A DNA stretch of 24,506 nucleotides from an uncultured bacterium (GTDB lineage: Bacteria > Actinomycetota > Thermoleophilia > BMS3ABIN01), in NCBI GenBank assembly GCA_913009925.1, contig CAJVWY010000001.1, positions 1 through 24,506 on the forward strand, given 5' to 3'. The position numbers and the translations under genes are program-made. The notes under the pieces are model-generated. The model did no database searches, was not told the origin of the DNA, and saw only the letters and a program-made list of their open reading frames with translations. Position 1 is the first letter of the stretch. Every line of letters starts with the position of its first letter. This document shows positions 7,237-19,239 of the stretch, in pieces.

Positions 7237-7890
7237 ATGTGGATATTACCATTGATTGCGGCGCTGGTCAGCGGCTTTTATTCGGGAGTCGTCATCAGAC
7301 TGCATTCGCCTGGTTCCGGTCTCTCTTTCATCTGGTGGTCCATCGCTTTACTGGGGCTGGCCGTGGCGTCGGCATGCCTGTTCATAGGCAGCTTGAGCGG
7401 CTGGAGCCCGTTCATCGCCCGGACTTATTATCTATTCGGCACGGTTACCCTGGTTGCTTTCTTCAGCGTCGGTATCACTTACCTGCTGGCACCCCGTCCC
7501 GTGGCCCATATGTGGGCCCTGCTGGTGGTGGTTGTGACGGCGCTGGCGGCATTCATCCTGGCGGGAGCGGATGTGGACCACGATGTGTTTGCCGTAGCGG
7601 GGGAGCCTGGCTGGAAGGCCATCGACCGTTCCCAGTTGCTGATGGGACTTACTTCGGCGCTGGGGAACCTGGGCATCCTGGTGCTGATAACAGCAGCGGT
7701 GTTCGCTTATGTCTACCGGCGCTTCGCCCTGCCCGCGGGGCTCATCGCCACGGGCTCGCTGATTTTATTCTACGGCGGCAACATCATAGCCGCCCTGGGC
7801 GGCTATGGATACGTTTCTCTGGGATACCTGCTGGGGTCTACGGTCATCGTCGCCGGCATCATGATGACAGCCGGCGACGGCACCGGTTAA
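7237..7890 (+). CDS. Uncharacterised polytopic membrane protein (about 6-7 hydrophobic segments)
   Basis: 217 aa with repeated hydrophobic stretches, a GGGAGA RBS-like sequence, 17 bp after the CoA-binding gene. Confidence 0.75.
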   Translation: MWILPLIAALVSGFYSGVVIRLHSPGSGLSFIWWSIALLGLAVASACLFIGSLSGWSPFIARTYYLFGTVTLVAFFSVGITYLLAPRPVAHMWALLVVVVTALAAFILAGADVDHDVFAVAGEPGWKAIDRSQLLMGLTSALGNLGILVLITAAVFAYVYRRFALPAGLIATGSLILFYGGNIIAALGGYGYVSLGYLLGSTVIVAGIMMTAGDGTG

Positions 7891-8303
7891 TCTATCTCGT
7901 CTTCCAGCATCCAGCATTCCAGAACTCCTGGATGGCATTCCTCTTCATCGGCTGCGCTGGCTCCCTCGGGGTGTTCCGGCTCCGCCTGAGTCGTATGTGG
8001 ATAGCGGGTGCACTTGCCCTGATGGCGGTCGCGGCAGTCGATCTGCTGGTCACTGATGTCGAGGATATCCGCTTCCTGGCGACCAGACTCCTGTTCGCGG
8101 TTGAGCTTGTTCGTCAGGCTCTTTATCCCCGCCAGGGTGGCCGATCTCTTCCTGCCCTCCGGGCTCAGGTCGGGCGTTTTGCCTTCCCCGGTGGTGGCGA
8201 CCCAGACTATGCGGTCTTCCGGCACAACGATAAGGTATTTGGCCGTGCGGCCGTCGTCTTCCTTTCCTCTGATAACCGCGCAAGTGATCTGGCGTGCAGA
8301 CAT
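7887..8303 (-). CDS. Hypothetical protein with acidic Cys/His-containing C-terminus
   Basis: GC3-rich codons and GGGAGGGAG upstream (GTG 8312 or ATG 8303). Shares a TTAA stop overlap with the convergent membrane-protein gene. No family recognised. Confidence 0.6.
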   Translation of the reverse strand: MSARQITCAVIRGKEDDGRTAKYLIVVPEDRIVWVATTGEGKTPDLSPEGRKRSATLAGIKSLTNKLNREQESGRQEADILDISDQQIDCRDRHQGKCTRYPHTTQAEPEHPEGASAADEEECHPGVLECWMLEDEID

Positions 8304-14677: not shown

Positions 14678-15964
14678 TTGTCCCCGATCCTGCAGATAGC
14701 CCTGGACTTTCTGGATCTTCCCCGCGCCCTGGCGGTGGCCGAAGAGGCCATCAGGGGTGGCGTGGACTGGGTCGAGGCGGGCACCCCCCTGATAAAGAGC
14801 GAAGGGCTGGACTCGGTACGCCGGATGAAGCAGCGCTGGCCGGACAGGGTTATCGTCGCCGACCTGAAGACCATGGACGCCGGACGATTCGAGATGGAAT
14901 CCGCCGCCAAGGCCGGGGCCGGGATCGCCGGCGTGCTGGGGGCCGCCGCCGACGCCACCATCAGTGAATGTATCGAGGTAGCAGGAAACTACGGCCTGAA
15001 AGTTGTTGTGGACATGATTGAAGTGCCGGATCCGGTGGAAAGGGCAAGGCAGGTGGAGGCTATGGGGGCAGACTACATCGGTATCCACACGGCAATCGAC
15101 CAGCAGATGCAGGGCAAGGCCCCTCTGGAGACCCTGGAGCTGGTAAAGGCGGCGGTGGAGATGCCGGTGGCCGTTGCCGGGGGCATCAATTCGGAAACAG
15201 CCGCTGACGCCGTGAATGCCGGAGCGGATATCGTTATCGTAGGCGGGGCCATCATCAAGGCGGCCGACGCCGAGGCGGCGGCGCGCCGGATAAGGCAGGC
15301 AATGGATACCGGGACCGCCATCAACACCAGGCTTTATAAAAGGGCCACCGGCGCCGGTATCCGGTCCGTCCTGGAAATGGTCTCAACCGCTAACATCTCC
15401 GATGCCATGCATCGCAGCGGTGACATTTCCGGCGTCACCCCGGTTTTCCCCGGCCTGAGAATGGCGGGGCCGGCCGTGACCGTGCGCACCTCTCCGGGGG
15501 ACTGGGCCAAGCCGGTGGAGGCTATCGATCAGGCCGGCGAGGGTGATGTGGTGGTCATCGACGCCGGTGGCGCCGGACCGGCGGTATGGGGCGAACTGGC
15601 GACCCACAGCTCTCGAAAGAGGGGCCTGGCGGGTGTAGTAGTCCATGGAGCAGTCAGGGACGTGGCTGATATCAGGGATATGCAATTCCCGGTGTTCGCG
15701 GGAGAGATCACGCCGACGGCGGGCGAGCCCAAGGGGTTCGGCGAGATAGGCGTGCCGGTCACCATCTCCCGGGTAAGGATCCATCCTGGCGACTGGATGG
15801 TAGGTGATGACGACGGCGTCGTAGTCATTCCCGGAGGCAGGGCCGCCGAGGTGGCCAACCGCGCCATGGATGTGATGGAACGGGAGAACCGTCTCAGGAG
15901 GGAGATCGAGGACGGGAGCACTCTTAGCCAGGTGGCCTATCTGCAGAAATGGGAGAAAACCTGA
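14678..15964 (+). CDS. Fusion of 3-hexulose-6-phosphate synthase-like (OMPDC/HPS barrel) and RraA/HMG-aldolase-like domains
   Basis: N-terminal LQIALD, EAGTPLI, ADLKTMDAG (DxKxxD), YIGIHTAID, VAVAGGIN. C-terminal STANISDAM, AGPAVTV, AVWGEL, GAVRD, PGDWMVGDDDGVVVIP. TTG start after GGGAGAG. Confidence 0.9.
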   Translation: MSPILQIALDFLDLPRALAVAEEAIRGGVDWVEAGTPLIKSEGLDSVRRMKQRWPDRVIVADLKTMDAGRFEMESAAKAGAGIAGVLGAAADATISECIEVAGNYGLKVVVDMIEVPDPVERARQVEAMGADYIGIHTAIDQQMQGKAPLETLELVKAAVEMPVAVAGGINSETAADAVNAGADIVIVGGAIIKAADAEAAARRIRQAMDTGTAINTRLYKRATGAGIRSVLEMVSTANISDAMHRSGDISGVTPVFPGLRMAGPAVTVRTSPGDWAKPVEAIDQAGEGDVVVIDAGGAGPAVWGELATHSSRKRGLAGVVVHGAVRDVADIRDMQFPVFAGEITPTAGEPKGFGEIGVPVTISRVRIHPGDWMVGDDDGVVVIPGGRAAEVANRAMDVMERENRLRREIEDGSTLSQVAYLQKWEKT

Positions 15965-15972
15965 CCGGGGGA

Positions 15973-16221
15973 TCAGGAGCCGCCGTCGTGGTCACGCGAA
16001 CTCTCGATGCTGATGACACGGTGTAGCCTGGTGCGTACCTCACCCGGCATCACTTTCGGGGGCAGGGAATGATAGAGGGTTACGGTCTTGCGCAGGGTGT
16101 TCACTACGATGCGACAGTTCTGGCAATGGTCCAGATGTCTCTGGATCTCGTTGCAGGTACTCGTGGACAGGTCCTCGTCGATGAACTCCGATAAGGCTTC
16201 GAAGATTTCCCGGCAGTTCAC
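15973..16221 (-). CDS. Soluble zinc-binding anti-sigma factor (zf-HC2/ZAS)
   Basis: C3-x25-H29-x3-C33-x2-C36 (HLDHCQNC). No hydrophobic segment. GTG start overlaps the sigma stop (GTGA). Confidence 0.9.
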   Translation of the reverse strand: MNCREIFEALSEFIDEDLSTSTCNEIQRHLDHCQNCRIVVNTLRKTVTLYHSLPPKVMPGEVRTRLHRVISIESSRDHDGGS

Positions 16222-16829
16222 TGTGCCACCCCTTCCTCGCTGAAGTATCCGGAGAGTTCGTTGCGCAGGTATACACGAGCCCGGTGCAGCCGGGATTTCA
16301 CAGCCGCTTTGGAGAGGTCCAGGACATCCGCCACCTCTGCGGTGGACAACTCCTCTATATCTCGGAGGACGAATACCGCCCGGTAGATCTCGGGCATCTC
16401 TTCTATCGCCTGGTTCATGATCTGCATCGCTTCATCGTCGAGCAGTTCCCTGACCGGGTTGTTTGACCAATCGGAGAGTTTCTCGCCGGACCGGGCGGCC
16501 TGCTGGACAGCGTAGACATTATCAAGGAACTCATCCTCGCCCTTCACCTTCCTGCCCTGTTTCCTCAACCGGGTCAGGGCGGTGTTGGCCGCTATCCGGT
16601 ACAGCCAGGTTGAGAAACTGGATCTTCCCTGAAAACGGTCCAGGGCACGGATGACGTTGATGAAGGTATCCTGGAGCACATCCTCGGCGTCCTCACGGCT
16701 CCCCACCATACGGTAGGCAAGATTATAAACCCTGTCCTCATACCTTGATATCAGTTCCTCGAGCAACCCGGTCTCTCCGGCATTGATACGCTCGATCAAC
16801 TGGTTATCGGTAGGAACTGTTTTTCCCAT
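16218..16829 (-). CDS. ECF RNA polymerase sigma-70 factor
   Basis: Region 2 DAEDVLQDTF...FSTWLYRIAAN and region 4 VFVLRDIEELSTAEVADVL...AVKSRLHRAR; no region 3. Confidence 0.94.
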   Translation of the reverse strand: MGKTVPTDNQLIERINAGETGLLEELISRYEDRVYNLAYRMVGSREDAEDVLQDTFINVIRALDRFQGRSSFSTWLYRIAANTALTRLRKQGRKVKGEDEFLDNVYAVQQAARSGEKLSDWSNNPVRELLDDEAMQIMNQAIEEMPEIYRAVFVLRDIEELSTAEVADVLDLSKAAVKSRLHRARVYLRNELSGYFSEEGVAQ

Positions 16830-16832
16830 TTG

Positions 16833-16861
16833 TTAGACTATTGCCCATGTTAAAGGATTCA
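16833..16861 (-). promoter_or_regulatory. Putative ECF-type promoter in front of the sigma gene
   Basis: Minus strand TGAATCCTTT (16861-16852), N13, GTCTAA (16838-16833). The -35 part overlaps palindrome AAGGAT-tc-ATCCTT (16853-16866). Confidence 0.5.
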
Positions 16862-16896
16862 TCCTTCCGAGAACTTTATCATTCTGGAGAGGAAAT

Positions 16897-16925
16897 TGAA
16901 TCCTTTTCCAGAGAGCGGCATCAAA
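16897..16925 (+). promoter_or_regulatory. Putative ECF-type promoter for the zinc ribbon-ferredoxin-trxA operon
   Basis: TGAATCCTTT (16897-16906), N13, ATCAAA (16920-16925): the same 10-mer and spacing as the minus-strand copy. Confidence 0.55.
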
Positions 16926-16987
16926 AATACAGTCAGTTCAATCGGCCCGGCCGATTCGCCGGGCTTTTGCGGAGGTGAAAACAACAG

Positions 16988-17191
16988 ATGGCTATTTATG
17001 ATCTCAAGTGCGACGAATGCGGGCACCAGTTCGAGAAGTATGTATCCGGGTTCCTCTCGGAAGATGACAAGGTATGCCCCGAGTGTGGCGGCCTCAGGAT
17101 TTCCCAGAAGTTCACCAGTTTCTTCGGCAGCTGTACCACGGGCGGTGGCAGCGGTGGCTGCGCTCCACCTGCTACCGGTGGCTTCGGCTGA
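16988..17191 (+). CDS. FmdB-family zinc ribbon protein
   Basis: MAIYDLKCDECGHQFE...VCPECG; strong GGAGGTG RBS at 16971-16977. Confidence 0.88.
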   Translation: MAIYDLKCDECGHQFEKYVSGFLSEDDKVCPECGGLRISQKFTSFFGSCTTGGGSGGCAPPATGGFG

Positions 17192-17242
17192 GCCTGATCC
17201 GGCGGCCAGTTTGGCTGTACGAATAAACGGAAGTGTGCTTAA

Positions 17243-17437
17243 ATGCAGCTTGCGCGTGTCAATGTGGGAGAATGTGCAGGGCATGAAAAGTGCCATGCCC
17301 GTAAGGTATGCCCTACCAAGGCGGTTGTGCAACTTGATCCGGGCGAGACGGCCATGGTATTGAGCGATCTGTGCCAGGGGTGCGGGGATTGTGTAGCCGC
17401 CTGTCCCCATAAAGCCATCGAGCTCAGGCAGTCATGA
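17243..17437 (+). CDS. Small Fe-S ferredoxin-like protein
   Basis: Canonical CQGCGDCVAACP plus an atypical first motif CAGHEKCHARKVCP; 64 aa. Confidence 0.85.
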   Translation: MQLARVNVGECAGHEKCHARKVCPTKAVVQLDPGETAMVLSDLCQGCGDCVAACPHKAIELRQS

Positions 17438-17487
17438 GCCGGTCGGGTCTGATGTTGCTCTCAAATGATTCCAGAAAGGAGACCATT

Positions 17488-17811
17488 TTGTCAGGTAAAG
17501 ATGTTATCGAGGTCAATGACTCCAGCTTCCAGGATGAGGTACTGAAATCAGACATGCCGGTTATTGTCGATTTCTGGGCGGCGTGGTGTGGTCCCTGCCG
17601 CATGGTAGGCCCTATCGTCGAGGAGATAGCCAGCGAGTATGCCGGCAAGGTAAAGGTAGCCAAGCTCAATGTGGACGATAACAAGGAGACTGCCACCAAG
17701 TACGGTATCATGAGCATCCCCACCATCCTCAAGTTCGAAGCGGGTTCGGTGGCCAAACAGATAGTCGGGGCAATGCCCAAGACCGCCCTGATCAAGGAAT
17801 TGGATATCTAG
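17488..17811 (+). CDS. trxA: Thioredoxin
   Basis: VDFWAAWCGPCRM, KLNVDDN, IMSIPT. TTG start at 17488 after AAAGGAG. Confidence 0.96.
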   Translation: MSGKDVIEVNDSSFQDEVLKSDMPVIVDFWAAWCGPCRMVGPIVEEIASEYAGKVKVAKLNVDDNKETATKYGIMSIPTILKFEAGSVAKQIVGAMPKTALIKELDI

Positions 17812-17828
17812 GCTCCCGGCCGGGAGTC
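17811..17828. terminator. Palindromic hairpin between convergent trxA and the L,D-transpeptidase gene
   Basis: CTCCCGGCCGGGAG (17813-17826) is a perfect 14-bp palindrome; no U-tract on either side. Confidence 0.35.
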
Positions 17829-17850
17829 AGCTTCGTCGATCCCGGTTCAC

Positions 17851-19239
17851 CTAATAATGGATCGACACTATGGTCCCTATGGGGGCCCAGTTGTACAGGA
17901 ATTCGGCATCCGGCACCGGCAGGCCAACGCATCCGTGACTGCTGGGTACACCGAAGGTCGTAGCCCAATAGTTGCCGTGAATAGTGTAGTCACCGTTGAA
18001 CATCAGCACCCAGGGTACGTCGGGGGCACTGTAGCCCTCCCCCTCCATGTCCAGCTTCTCCGCCTTGGCGTATACCGCATAGGTTCCCGTCAGGCTGGGG
18101 GTCGCTTTGGATCCGCTTGAACATATCATGGTCCTGACCTGCTGGTCGTGTTCGTAGAGGGTCACTGTTTGCGCCGACAGGTTCACATCGATGAACTTGG
18201 ACGGCTTGATGGTAAAGGTGCTCTGTACGTCTTCTCGCAGGTAGCTGCCGCTTACACCCCTGAGGCCCTCGGTGCCGCCCTTGAGGCTTATGGTGACCTG
18301 TGCTCCTTCCGTCCAGGTATCCAGCGGCCTGAACTCCAGGGTGTCGGCAGCGATCCACTCCCATGAACCCAGCGTCGACGGCTCAACGGCCAGTATCGAA
18401 TCCGCGATCTCCGGATTACGGATATCCTCAGTAAAGGTCAGAGTCGGCCGGGCGCCGCGGCTCACAGCTGACTCGCCGTCACCGGGTACGAATATGACTT
18501 TTAGCGGATCGGTGGTTACTATAGCCTGGGAATAGGGCTGTTTGAGCGTAGCGCCGTTCTCGGCGGTGGCGGCCGTGAAGGCCAGGGTATATGACTGGCC
18601 CTGTTCGTATCCCTCGAAGGAGATGAGCACCCGCGTGTGGTTTTCCTTGTCGATGGTTGCCGTGGAAGGGACCTCCGGCGTCAGGGTATAGTCGAATTCC
18701 TCGATGGGTGTATTGAACTCCACCACGATAGGGGTACCAATCTCCACTGCCTGGGCGGTCTCGGTTACCAGGGGCGCCGGGGTCACCACCGTATGGAAGG
18801 TGACCTTCTCGATGACCTGCTCAGTGTCAAAACCAGTGAGGGACAGCTGCCTCAGGTCGGCGTTGACCGTGATCTCATAGCGGGCGTCCGGCTTAAGCAG
18901 CGGGCCTCTGTCCGGCATGAATACGCCGCCCTCCAGGCGGCCGCTGAGTCTTTCTTCCGAGACCGGCGTCCCCATGGGGTCCAGCAGCGTCTCCTTGACC
19001 TCGACGCTGTTGATGCTGCCGCGGAAGCGGCTGGCGGATATCTTCAGCAGGGTATCCACGGGGACTTCCCTGCTACCCGTAGCCGGGCTTATCTTCACCG
19101 CGGGGGGGAATATGGCGCTAAGTGTAAGCGCGCCCACCAGGCTGAACACGGCGATTACCAGCGAGATGCCGATGATCGACCGCCGCCGTGAGGATGCCCT
19201 GTTCAAGCTTTGTTGTGGTATCGGTGTAACCCGATTCAT
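17851..19239 (-). CDS. L,D-transpeptidase (YkuD-type catalytic domain) with N-terminal membrane anchor and probable Ig-like repeats
   Basis: C-terminal IDVNLSAQTVTLYE, SSGS...G, IHGNYWATTFGVPSSHGCV (H...SHGC catalytic motif). N-terminal basic plus hydrophobic segment. Middle contains PTLTF..I / P...G.W.W...TLEFRP repeats. Confidence 0.9.
   Translation of the reverse strand: MNRVTPIPQQSLNRASSRRRSIIGISLVIAVFSLVGALTLSAIFPPAVKISPATGSREVPVDTLLKISASRFRGSINSVEVKETLLDPMGTPVSEERLSGRLEGGVFMPDRGPLLKPDARYEITVNADLRQLSLTGFDTEQVIEKVTFHTVVTPAPLVTETAQAVEIGTPIVVEFNTPIEEFDYTLTPEVPSTATIDKENHTRVLISFEGYEQGQSYTLAFTAATAENGATLKQPYSQAIVTTDPLKVIFVPGDGESAVSRGARPTLTFTEDIRNPEIADSILAVEPSTLGSWEWIAADTLEFRPLDTWTEGAQVTISLKGGTEGLRGVSGSYLREDVQSTFTIKPSKFIDVNLSAQTVTLYEHDQQVRTMICSSGSKATPSLTGTYAVYAKAEKLDMEGEGYSAPDVPWVLMFNGDYTIHGNYWATTFGVPSSHGCVGLPVPDAEFLYNWAPIGTIVSIHY

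Follow-up and report, generated by a model that had tools for sequence, protein, structure and literature searches.

A sigmaE-like ECF sigma factor, a zinc-binding anti-sigma factor and twin promoters facing a thioredoxin operon: a predicted stress switch in the uncultured actinomycete family BMS3ABIN01

The 24,506-nucleotide stretch analysed here (the window) is contig 1 (CAJVWY010000001.1) of a 1.23 Mb, 70% complete genome from the uncultured BMS3ABIN01, an order and family of Thermoleophilia (Actinomycetota) and a predicted sulfate reducer (PMC13503563). Between positions 15973 and 17811 it carries what is probably a two-operon stress switch, in which a sigma factor of the extracytoplasmic function (ECF) type, a zinc-associated anti-sigma (ZAS) factor, cognate twin promoters and a thioredoxin operon would serve a wider regulon. 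A preliminary description of the locus had proposed that the twin motif is the recognition sequence of this sigma factor, and the proposal is supported by the retention of the motif ahead of 22 of 22 ortholog sigma genes and of the divergent operon, and by its enrichment genome-wide. The system is of a known type, and its gene content and conservation give good support to its being a new, family-specific example. It provides a defined stress sigma factor for a branch of the Actinomycetota that is uncultured and probably reduces sulfate, with a promoter motif and a predicted regulon obtained from comparative genomics alone.

Conserved twin promoters and the predicted regulon

The sigma gene (start codon at 16829, minus strand) and the zinc-ribbon gene (start codon at 16988, plus strand) diverge from a 158-bp gap in which TGAATCCTTT occurs once on each strand, at 16897-16906 (plus) and 16852-16861 (minus); no further copy exists in the window, even with one mismatch allowed. 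Thirteen nt beyond the plus-strand copy stands ATCAAA (16920-16925), facing the zinc-ribbon/ferredoxin/trxA operon, and 13 nt beyond the minus-strand copy stands GTCTAA (16838-16833), facing the sigma gene, in agreement with the preliminary description. The putative ECF-type promoter of the sigma gene thus spans 16833-16861 on the minus strand, with TGAATCCTTT as its -35 element (16861-16852), GTCTAA as its -10 element and CAA between the latter and the ATG. The corresponding promoter of the zinc-ribbon/ferredoxin/trxA operon spans 16897-16925 on the plus strand, with TGAATCCTTT, the 13-nt spacer and ATCAAA, and is the top-scoring site of its own genome in a weight-matrix scan.

Orthologs of the sigma factor (62-95% identity) were found in 21 of the 23 other genomes of the family and, at that level of identity, in none of the other families of the class; with the window's own, this gives 22 sigma genes for comparison. 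All 22 are preceded by (T/C)GAAYCYTTT-N13/14-GTCTAA, with unrelated spacer sequences of 13 nt (19 genes) or 14 nt (three genes), and the stretch between GTCTAA and ATG reads CAA or CAG in 21 and GCAA in one genome. On the opposite strand, 20 of the 22 loci carry GAAYCYTTT-N13-ATC(A/C)(A/T)A, again with variable spacers, followed by the zinc-ribbon gene. This gene stands first after the promoter in 20 of 22, the order zinc ribbon, ferredoxin, trxA is kept in 20 loci, and the ortholog leaders run for roughly 50-90 nt before GGAGGTG. A bipartite motif therefore precedes the sigma factor's own gene throughout, as is typical of autoregulated ECF promoters, and the finding that the preliminary description had named as fatal to its reading, ortholog sigma genes lacking the motif upstream, was made at none of the 22. 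The -35 element alternates between GAATCC and GAACCC among orthologs. Since both amount to an AAC-type box with T's behind it, like that of Escherichia coli sigmaE, the element is not exotic, and the earlier view that GAATCC is unlike the familiar types gives way to a sigmaE-like motif (PMC6648896, PMC2893595).

Across the 24 family genomes, a relaxed pattern (GAAYCYTT-N14-RTCHWA) yielded 101 matches, as compared to two for a control in which the pattern was read backwards. The narrower TGAATCC-N16-RTCWAA, a scan suggested by the preliminary description, had four matches in the window's own genome, where about 0.05 would be expected from its 112 TGAATCC copies and base composition. About 61 sites lie outside the sigma locus across the family, and about 51 of them lie a short way upstream of members of recurrent gene families and share their orientation: a selenoprotein candidate (16 sites), rhodanese proteins of three types (11), Hsp20 (nine), an SQR-like flavoprotein (six), a YeeE-type sulfur transporter (three), DnaK (two), a copper ATPase (two), ClpB (one) and a second zinc ribbon (one). 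In the own genome the extra sites lie ahead of the genes for a membrane rhodanese on contig 5, for a DUF302 protein on contig 33 and, with one additional spacer base, for TusA on contig 94. Beyond the contig 5 and contig 94 sites, the weight-matrix scan of this genome added only weak or uninterpretable matches, and the strict pattern found no site at trxB. With at least two to three more sites in its own genome and some 60 across the family, the module is the hub of a regulon and not self-contained, as had been supposed. The predicted content of this regulon (thioredoxin, sulfur transfer, chaperones) fits a response to thiol, sulfur and proteotoxic stress, and both the motif, (T/C)GAAYCYTTT-N13-RTCWAA, and its targets, the selenoprotein candidate included, are directly testable products of the comparison.

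Several of the sites have features of their own. The selenoprotein candidate, which follows the sigma motif in 16 family genomes and is the most frequent target in relatives, is about 106-122 residues long (one was called at 136), and has an in-frame TGA within the conserved FGSRYLDSCSGGUGPSWSLEE and a conserved hairpin-forming stretch after the TGA (for example L065:236-580, plus; L084:1356-1697, minus; L071:1384-1749, minus). Neither Pfam nor NCBIfam assigned it to a family, and the window's own genome (70% complete) showed no copy of it. The Hsp20 promoters of seven related loci (L037, L049, L063, L080, L089, L092 and L098) have a doubled -10 element, (A)TCTAAGTCTAA, made of two overlapping RTCTAA boxes six nt apart, with a conserved 'atttcct' downstream. 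On contig 6 of the own genome (about 7868-7898, minus), a strong -35 match to TGAATCCTTT with a -10 of GTCAGA has no open reading frame within about 300 nt downstream, and may be the promoter of a small RNA or a chance match.

The sigma and anti-sigma factors and their relatives

By its domain content, the 203-residue product of 16218-16829 (minus strand) is a bona fide ECF (group 4) sigma-70 factor, with regions 2 and 4 only (Pfam Sigma70_r2, 85.9 bits; r4_2, 63 bits) and a score of 124.3 bits against the sigma70-ECF model TIGR02937 (cut-off 42.9). Its best curated or solved relatives are sigmaE, AlgU and SigW (102-111 bits); E. coli sigmaE, the closest solved sigma factor, scores 111 bits, SigW 102 and Mycobacterium tuberculosis SigH 66. 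The scores against TIGR02947 (SigH_actino; 89.4 bits, cut-off 251.55) and TIGR02939 (RpoE equivalog; 133.8 bits, cut-off 236.15) both lie under the cut-offs. No genome of the family passes that of TIGR02947, which a Corynebacterium glutamicum control does pass, and no SigH/SigR or RsrA match above curated cut-offs was found in any family genome, the best match to both the SigH and RsrA models being the module studied here. The likeness to SigR/RsrA and SigH/RshA drawn in the preliminary description can thus be kept as a functional one and not as family membership, the sigma factor scoring as sigmaE/SigW-like. These results suggest that BMS3ABIN01 uses a sigmaE-like sigma factor with an RsrA-like anti-sigma factor where other actinomycetes use SigR/SigH.

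The anti-sigma gene (15973-16221, minus strand), the start of which overlaps the sigma stop codon, encodes 82 residues of the zinc-binding ZAS type (C3, C23, H29, C33, C36), and its product matches Pfam zf-HC2 at 39.3 bits (cut-off 22.2). An H-x3-C-x2-C motif in an anti-sigma domain encoded beside an ECF sigma factor characterises ZAS proteins, and solubility with an additional N-terminal cysteine 25 residues ahead of the histidine characterises the RsrA type; both are found here, in a metal site of the form C3-x25-H29-x3-C33-x2-C36, and all four cysteines and H29 are unchanged in the 22 orthologs. Peak 19-residue Kyte-Doolittle hydropathy is 0.29, and at most 0.65 in all orthologs, values that leave no membrane segment, and proteolysis in the membrane of the RsiW type is therefore inapplicable. 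Sequence and hydropathy accordingly agree with the soluble protein with a canonical C-x25-H-x3-C-x2-C site that had been described. Against the RsrA model TIGR03988 the protein aligns over its full length (residues 2-71 onto 1-71 of 77) at 38.3 bits, under the cut-off of 62.5; the best score across the family is 40.5.

The closest characterised analogues found are sigmaE/NMB2145 (MseR) of Neisseria meningitidis and RpoE2/HrsE of Haemophilus influenzae, likened here by their published description, in which, as in the window, a sigmaE-like ECF sigma factor is cotranscribed with a small cytoplasmic ZAS protein (PMC2893595, PMC7907618). The N-terminal cysteine and H-x3-C-x2-C spacing of NMB2145 (C4/H30/C34/C37) is identical here (PMC2893595). 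The Neisseria and Haemophilus operons are autoregulated from a -10 of CGTCTAAH, which matches the present one, and a -35 of GTMAGBWTT, which does not. Their regulons are small and centred on MsrAB, where msrAB (with a thioredoxin domain) repairs oxidised sulfur amino acids, whereas the targets here are trxA, the ferredoxin, rhodaneses, the SQR-like protein, YeeE/TusA and chaperones; the host, moreover, belongs to an anaerobic actinomycete lineage, and its sigma gene appears to have no leader. In soil metagenomes, a group of sigma factors about 52% identical to this one is accompanied by a 90-residue zf-HC2 partner with C4/H30/C34/C37 and preceded by GAACCGGCT-N13-ATCAAA and an ordinary 18-nt leader with a Shine-Dalgarno (SD) sequence. 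Together with the Neisseria and Haemophilus cases, this group indicates that the pairing of a sigmaE-like sigma factor with a small cytoplasmic ZAS protein is widespread.

SigR/RsrA of Streptomyces and SigH/RshA of Mycobacterium and Corynebacterium (ECF12) share with the module a soluble ZAS protein of the same spacing (C11/H37/C41/C44), a thioredoxin target, DnaK and ClpB in the regulon and the host phylum. An equivalent of RsrA C31 is also present in the anti-sigma factor. The SigR/SigH promoter, GGAAT-N18-GTT, has the same spacing as TGAAT-N18-GTC here, where the -10 is RTC(W)AA with an invariant C. Unlike ECF12, the sigma factor here is closer to sigmaE/SigW, and the anti-sigma factor scores under the RsrA cut-off and is without the redox-determinant residues. 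Promoters of E. coli sigmaE, with an AAC-type -35 (GGAACTT) followed by a T-rich stretch and a GTC-containing -10 (GTCAAA/TCTAA), have a similar geometry (PMC6648896). In E. coli the membrane protein RseA sequesters sigmaE, which proteolysis sets free on envelope stress, whereas a cytoplasmic zinc anti-sigma factor is predicted here, with a regulon of cytoplasmic thiol, sulfur and chaperone genes. As a separate observation, a frame of about 512 residues on contig 15 of the own genome (about 1048-1674, minus), with equivalents in at least ten other family genomes, has a sigma region-2 match near its N-terminus followed by a ZAS/RsrA match and may encode a fused sigma-like/anti-sigma protein.

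Taken together, a model can be proposed in which the small soluble zinc-binding anti-sigma factor, cotranscribed with the sigma gene, would keep the sigma factor inactive until a thiol-reactive insult (oxidants, electrophiles, reactive sulfur species or possibly copper) damages the zinc-thiolate site and releases it. Free sigma factor would then steer RNA polymerase to (T/C)GAAYCYTTT-N13-RTC(W)AA promoters, so that the back-to-back pair in the 158-bp gap fires both the sigma/anti-sigma operon and the zinc-ribbon/ferredoxin/thioredoxin operon. Other copies in the own genome would turn on sulfur-trafficking genes (rhodanese, DUF302, TusA) and, in relatives, also those for the SQR-like flavoprotein, YeeE, Hsp20, DnaK, ClpB, the copper ATPase and the selenoprotein candidate. 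Induced thioredoxin would re-reduce the anti-sigma factor and close the loop, while a housekeeping-type extended -10 element between the two boxes probably supplies basal sigma factor. The family regulon is dominated by sulfur trafficking (SQR-like, three kinds of rhodanese, YeeE, TusA, DUF302, thioredoxin and the CSGGU selenoprotein), and a tentative extension of the model, which we would not put above a possibility, is that an ECF sigma factor and a zinc-thiolate anti-sigma factor here together sense reactive sulfur species (persulfide or polysulfide), in a predicted sulfate-reducing lineage. To our knowledge the known persulfide sensors CstR, SqrR/BigR and FisR belong to other regulator families. 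If the extension holds, a sigma/anti-sigma persulfide sensor would be a new sensing architecture, to which a start codon 3 nt from the -10 element could add an unusual feedback design.

Alternative readings of the motif, the signal and the transcription start

Several observations weigh against parts of this model, and these are considered here along with the explanations that would compete with it. The two TGAATCCTTT copies form a perfect 10-nt inverted repeat with arms 35 nt apart, and could on that ground be taken for the operator of a dimeric repressor, or for an RNA or DNA hairpin, in place of a promoter pair. We regard this as highly implausible, as the orthologs place the two -35 boxes anywhere from 37 to 90 nt apart, which points to two independent promoters and not to a palindromic operator or hairpin, and as a -10-like hexamer is tied to each arm at a fixed 13 nt; the roughly 60 other copies, furthermore, are single and point at a downstream gene. 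Another alternative sigma factor, with its gene elsewhere, might instead read the promoters, the copy before this sigma gene then marking a cascade. The motif was assigned to its sigma factor by position and analogy, each genome has two to five ECF-like matches, and two genomes (G060, 92% complete; G132, 78% complete) have motif sites and no match to the sigma factor. Both are incomplete assemblies, however, and wherever the sigma gene is present the best-conserved and top-scoring copies are those that flank it. ECF sigma factors also autoregulate as a rule, and a cascade of this kind appears improbable.

A stronger challenge concerns the signal. Redox sensitivity of RsrA is conferred by E39, E40, L45 and E46 (PMC3177212), and the corresponding positions in the orthologs hold D/E/K/T/A, H/G/D/T, R/Q and I/V. 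The flank of the zinc motif, HLDHCQNCRIV in the window (HLETC in orthologs, with the pattern HL(D/E)xCxNCR), resembles HLETCEKCRK of the redox-insensitive RsiW rather than RsrA (PMC3177212), and expression of the analogous Neisseria sigmaE is unaltered by oxidants (PMC2893595). Hsp20, DnaK, ClpB and the copper ATPase are in the regulon too. It is conceivable, then, that the anti-sigma factor is no thiol or redox sensor, that another cue (zinc or copper status, unfolded proteins or heat, proteolysis, or a partner protein) frees the sigma factor, and that the thioredoxin and sulfur genes are outputs only, an explanation that we consider possible but the less probable one. The four cysteines are invariant and include the equivalent of RsrA C11, which is required for anti-sigma activity in both RsrA and NMB2145 (PMC2893595); the solubility of the protein speaks against release by RsiW-type membrane proteolysis; Haemophilus RpoE2/HrsE is induced by HOCl and H2O2 (PMC7907618); the family has no canonical SigR/RsrA pair; and thioredoxin and sulfur-transfer enzymes form the conserved core of the targets. 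The earlier proposal of disulfide sensing by a ZAS protein thus finds agreement in the invariant cysteines and histidine, the RsrA spacing and the solubility, and disagreement in the replaced redox determinants and the RsiW-like flank. Because the residues that determine this property in RsrA are not kept, disulfide sensing is suggested rather than established, and from the conserved residues we lean modestly towards an anti-sigma factor that senses thiol-reactive chemistry.

The position of the sigma start codon raises a further question. GTCTAA stands 3 nt from the ATG (16829-16827 in the window) in 21 of the 22 orthologs and 4 nt in the remaining one. This ATG is the only usable sigma start; within the first 30 codons many orthologs lack any further start codon, and no alternative there is conserved. 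Together with synonymous variation in the VPTD codons that directly follow, this marks the ATG at 16829 as the real start. No SD sequence precedes it, whereas in all 22 orthologs the anti-sigma gene has an SD-like motif, located within the 3' end of the sigma gene. A -10 element abutting an ATG without SD suggests a leaderless mRNA. In the ECF geometry, the flipped C of GTC is position -10 (PMC7776599, PMC6648896), and a 12-bp bubble extends from -10 (PMC6648896); in Neisseria, the mapped start of sigmaE transcription is the sixth nucleotide after CGTCTAAH (PMC2893595). Canonical counting therefore puts +1 at 16826, just past the start codon, with the A of the ATG at -3. The caution, voiced in the preliminary description, that the -10 lies only 3 nt from the ATG is thus real and sharper than stated, and with +1 predicted after the ATG, simple positive autoregulation is not assured. 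The literature searched for ECF promoters with very short -10-to-start distances returned nothing. Between the -35 boxes, TGNTANNNT is present in 20 of 22 orthologs, with T-A-x-x-x-T kept and the inner bases varying; in the window it is the extended -10-like element TGATAAAGT (TGnTAnnnT; 16873-16881, minus strand, toward the sigma gene), which by its pattern and conservation is probably a basal promoter of the sigma gene for the housekeeping sigma factor. A reading of the conserved GTTAGACT as a reversed ECF -10 was rejected, as at this place TAAAGT, TAAACT or TATATT, in which TAnnnT is kept and GTC is not, stands in the window and several orthologs.

These features allow two accounts, an unusually short leaderless distance or an induction of the anti-sigma factor alone. 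Under the latter, the sigma-proximal promoter would start canonically, at the G of the ATG or the first base of codon 2, and the induced transcripts, devoid of the sigma start codon, would yield only anti-sigma factor; sigma factor would come from the upstream housekeeping-type promoter, and the outcome would be negative feedback. In favour of this account, ECF transcription starts nine to ten nt past the flipped C of GTC (PMC7776599, PMC6648896) and the six-nucleotide rule of Neisseria (PMC2893595) predicts 16827 or 16826 here; the +1 base is a purine in 21 of 22 orthologs, the anti-sigma gene has its own SD in all 22, and the extended -10 lies upstream in 20. There is also a precedent in C. 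glutamicum, where SigA promoters drive sigH and a distinct, cognate ECF promoter read by SigH raises the expression of the anti-sigma gene rshA (PMC3489674). The housekeeping -10 hexamers of sigH, TAAAGT and TAGAGT, are the same as those in the extended -10 here, and the ECF promoter of C. glutamicum is internal to sigH, 62-66 nt ahead of rshA, rather than abutting the sigma start codon as in the window (PMC3489674). Against a canonical start, such transcripts would carry about 600 nt of untranslated sigma reading frame, inviting Rho-dependent termination; the strict distance and the lack of an SD before the sigma ATG have the look of a leaderless gene; and any spacing from 0 to 5 nt would serve to exclude the AUG, whereas it is exactly 3 in 21 of 22. 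Anti-sigma induction alone therefore seems rather unlikely to us, and since 21 of 22 orthologs preserve the 3-nt distance, a sigma transcript that starts 2-3 nt earlier than usual and is a perfect leaderless mRNA is slightly favoured. As a side observation on leaderless genes, TANNNT ending exactly 7 nt before candidate ATG or GTG starts is about twice as frequent over all contigs of the own genome as at neighbouring distances (45 versus about 20), which indicates a modest set of housekeeping leaderless genes.

The thioredoxin operon and flanking elements

Three genes make up the divergent operon. The first (16988-17191, plus strand) encodes an FmdB-family zinc-ribbon protein of 67 residues with a Gly/Cys-rich tail (Pfam Zn_ribbon_8, 48 bits, cut-off 34.4; TIGR02605, 41.8 bits, cut-off 31.3). 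It is followed by a gene for a small 4Fe-4S ferredoxin of 64 residues (17243-17437, plus) that scores above the cut-off of several Pfam Fer4 families (LdpA_Fe-S-bd, 37.8 bits, cut-off 27.6; Fer4, 30.3 bits, cut-off 21.1). The third gene (17434-17811, plus) encodes thioredoxin TrxA with a WCGPC active site (TIGR01068, 130.4 bits, cut-off 96.8). The longest trxA frame begins at ATG 17434 and overlaps the ferredoxin stop codon, while AGGAG lies 6 nt ahead of TTG 17488 and the ortholog at the related locus L002 begins at the equivalent TTG; the true start is probably this TTG and not the ATG, giving a predicted thioredoxin of 107 residues.

The 5' leader of the operon (16926-16987, plus) contains a GC-rich hairpin (16944-16965) followed by TTTT, a T-run that is not kept in orthologs, and then the Shine-Dalgarno sequence GGAGGTG. 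Most ortholog leaders likewise have a GC hairpin, differing in sequence, ahead of the conserved GGAGGTG. When the hairpins of 17 orthologs were folded, their energies were not clearly below those of shuffled sequences (z from -2.1 to +1.7), and a riboswitch or attenuator is not claimed on this account. At the other end of the locus, a consensus scan placed a terminator-like hairpin with a T-run at 15960-15977 (minus), at the end of the sigma/anti-sigma operon, which is convergent with a neighbouring plus-strand gene ending at 15964. Between the trxA stop codon and a convergent L,D-transpeptidase gene (17851-19239, minus), the perfect palindrome CTCCCGGCCGGGAG at 17812-17830 may act as a bidirectional terminator without a T-run.

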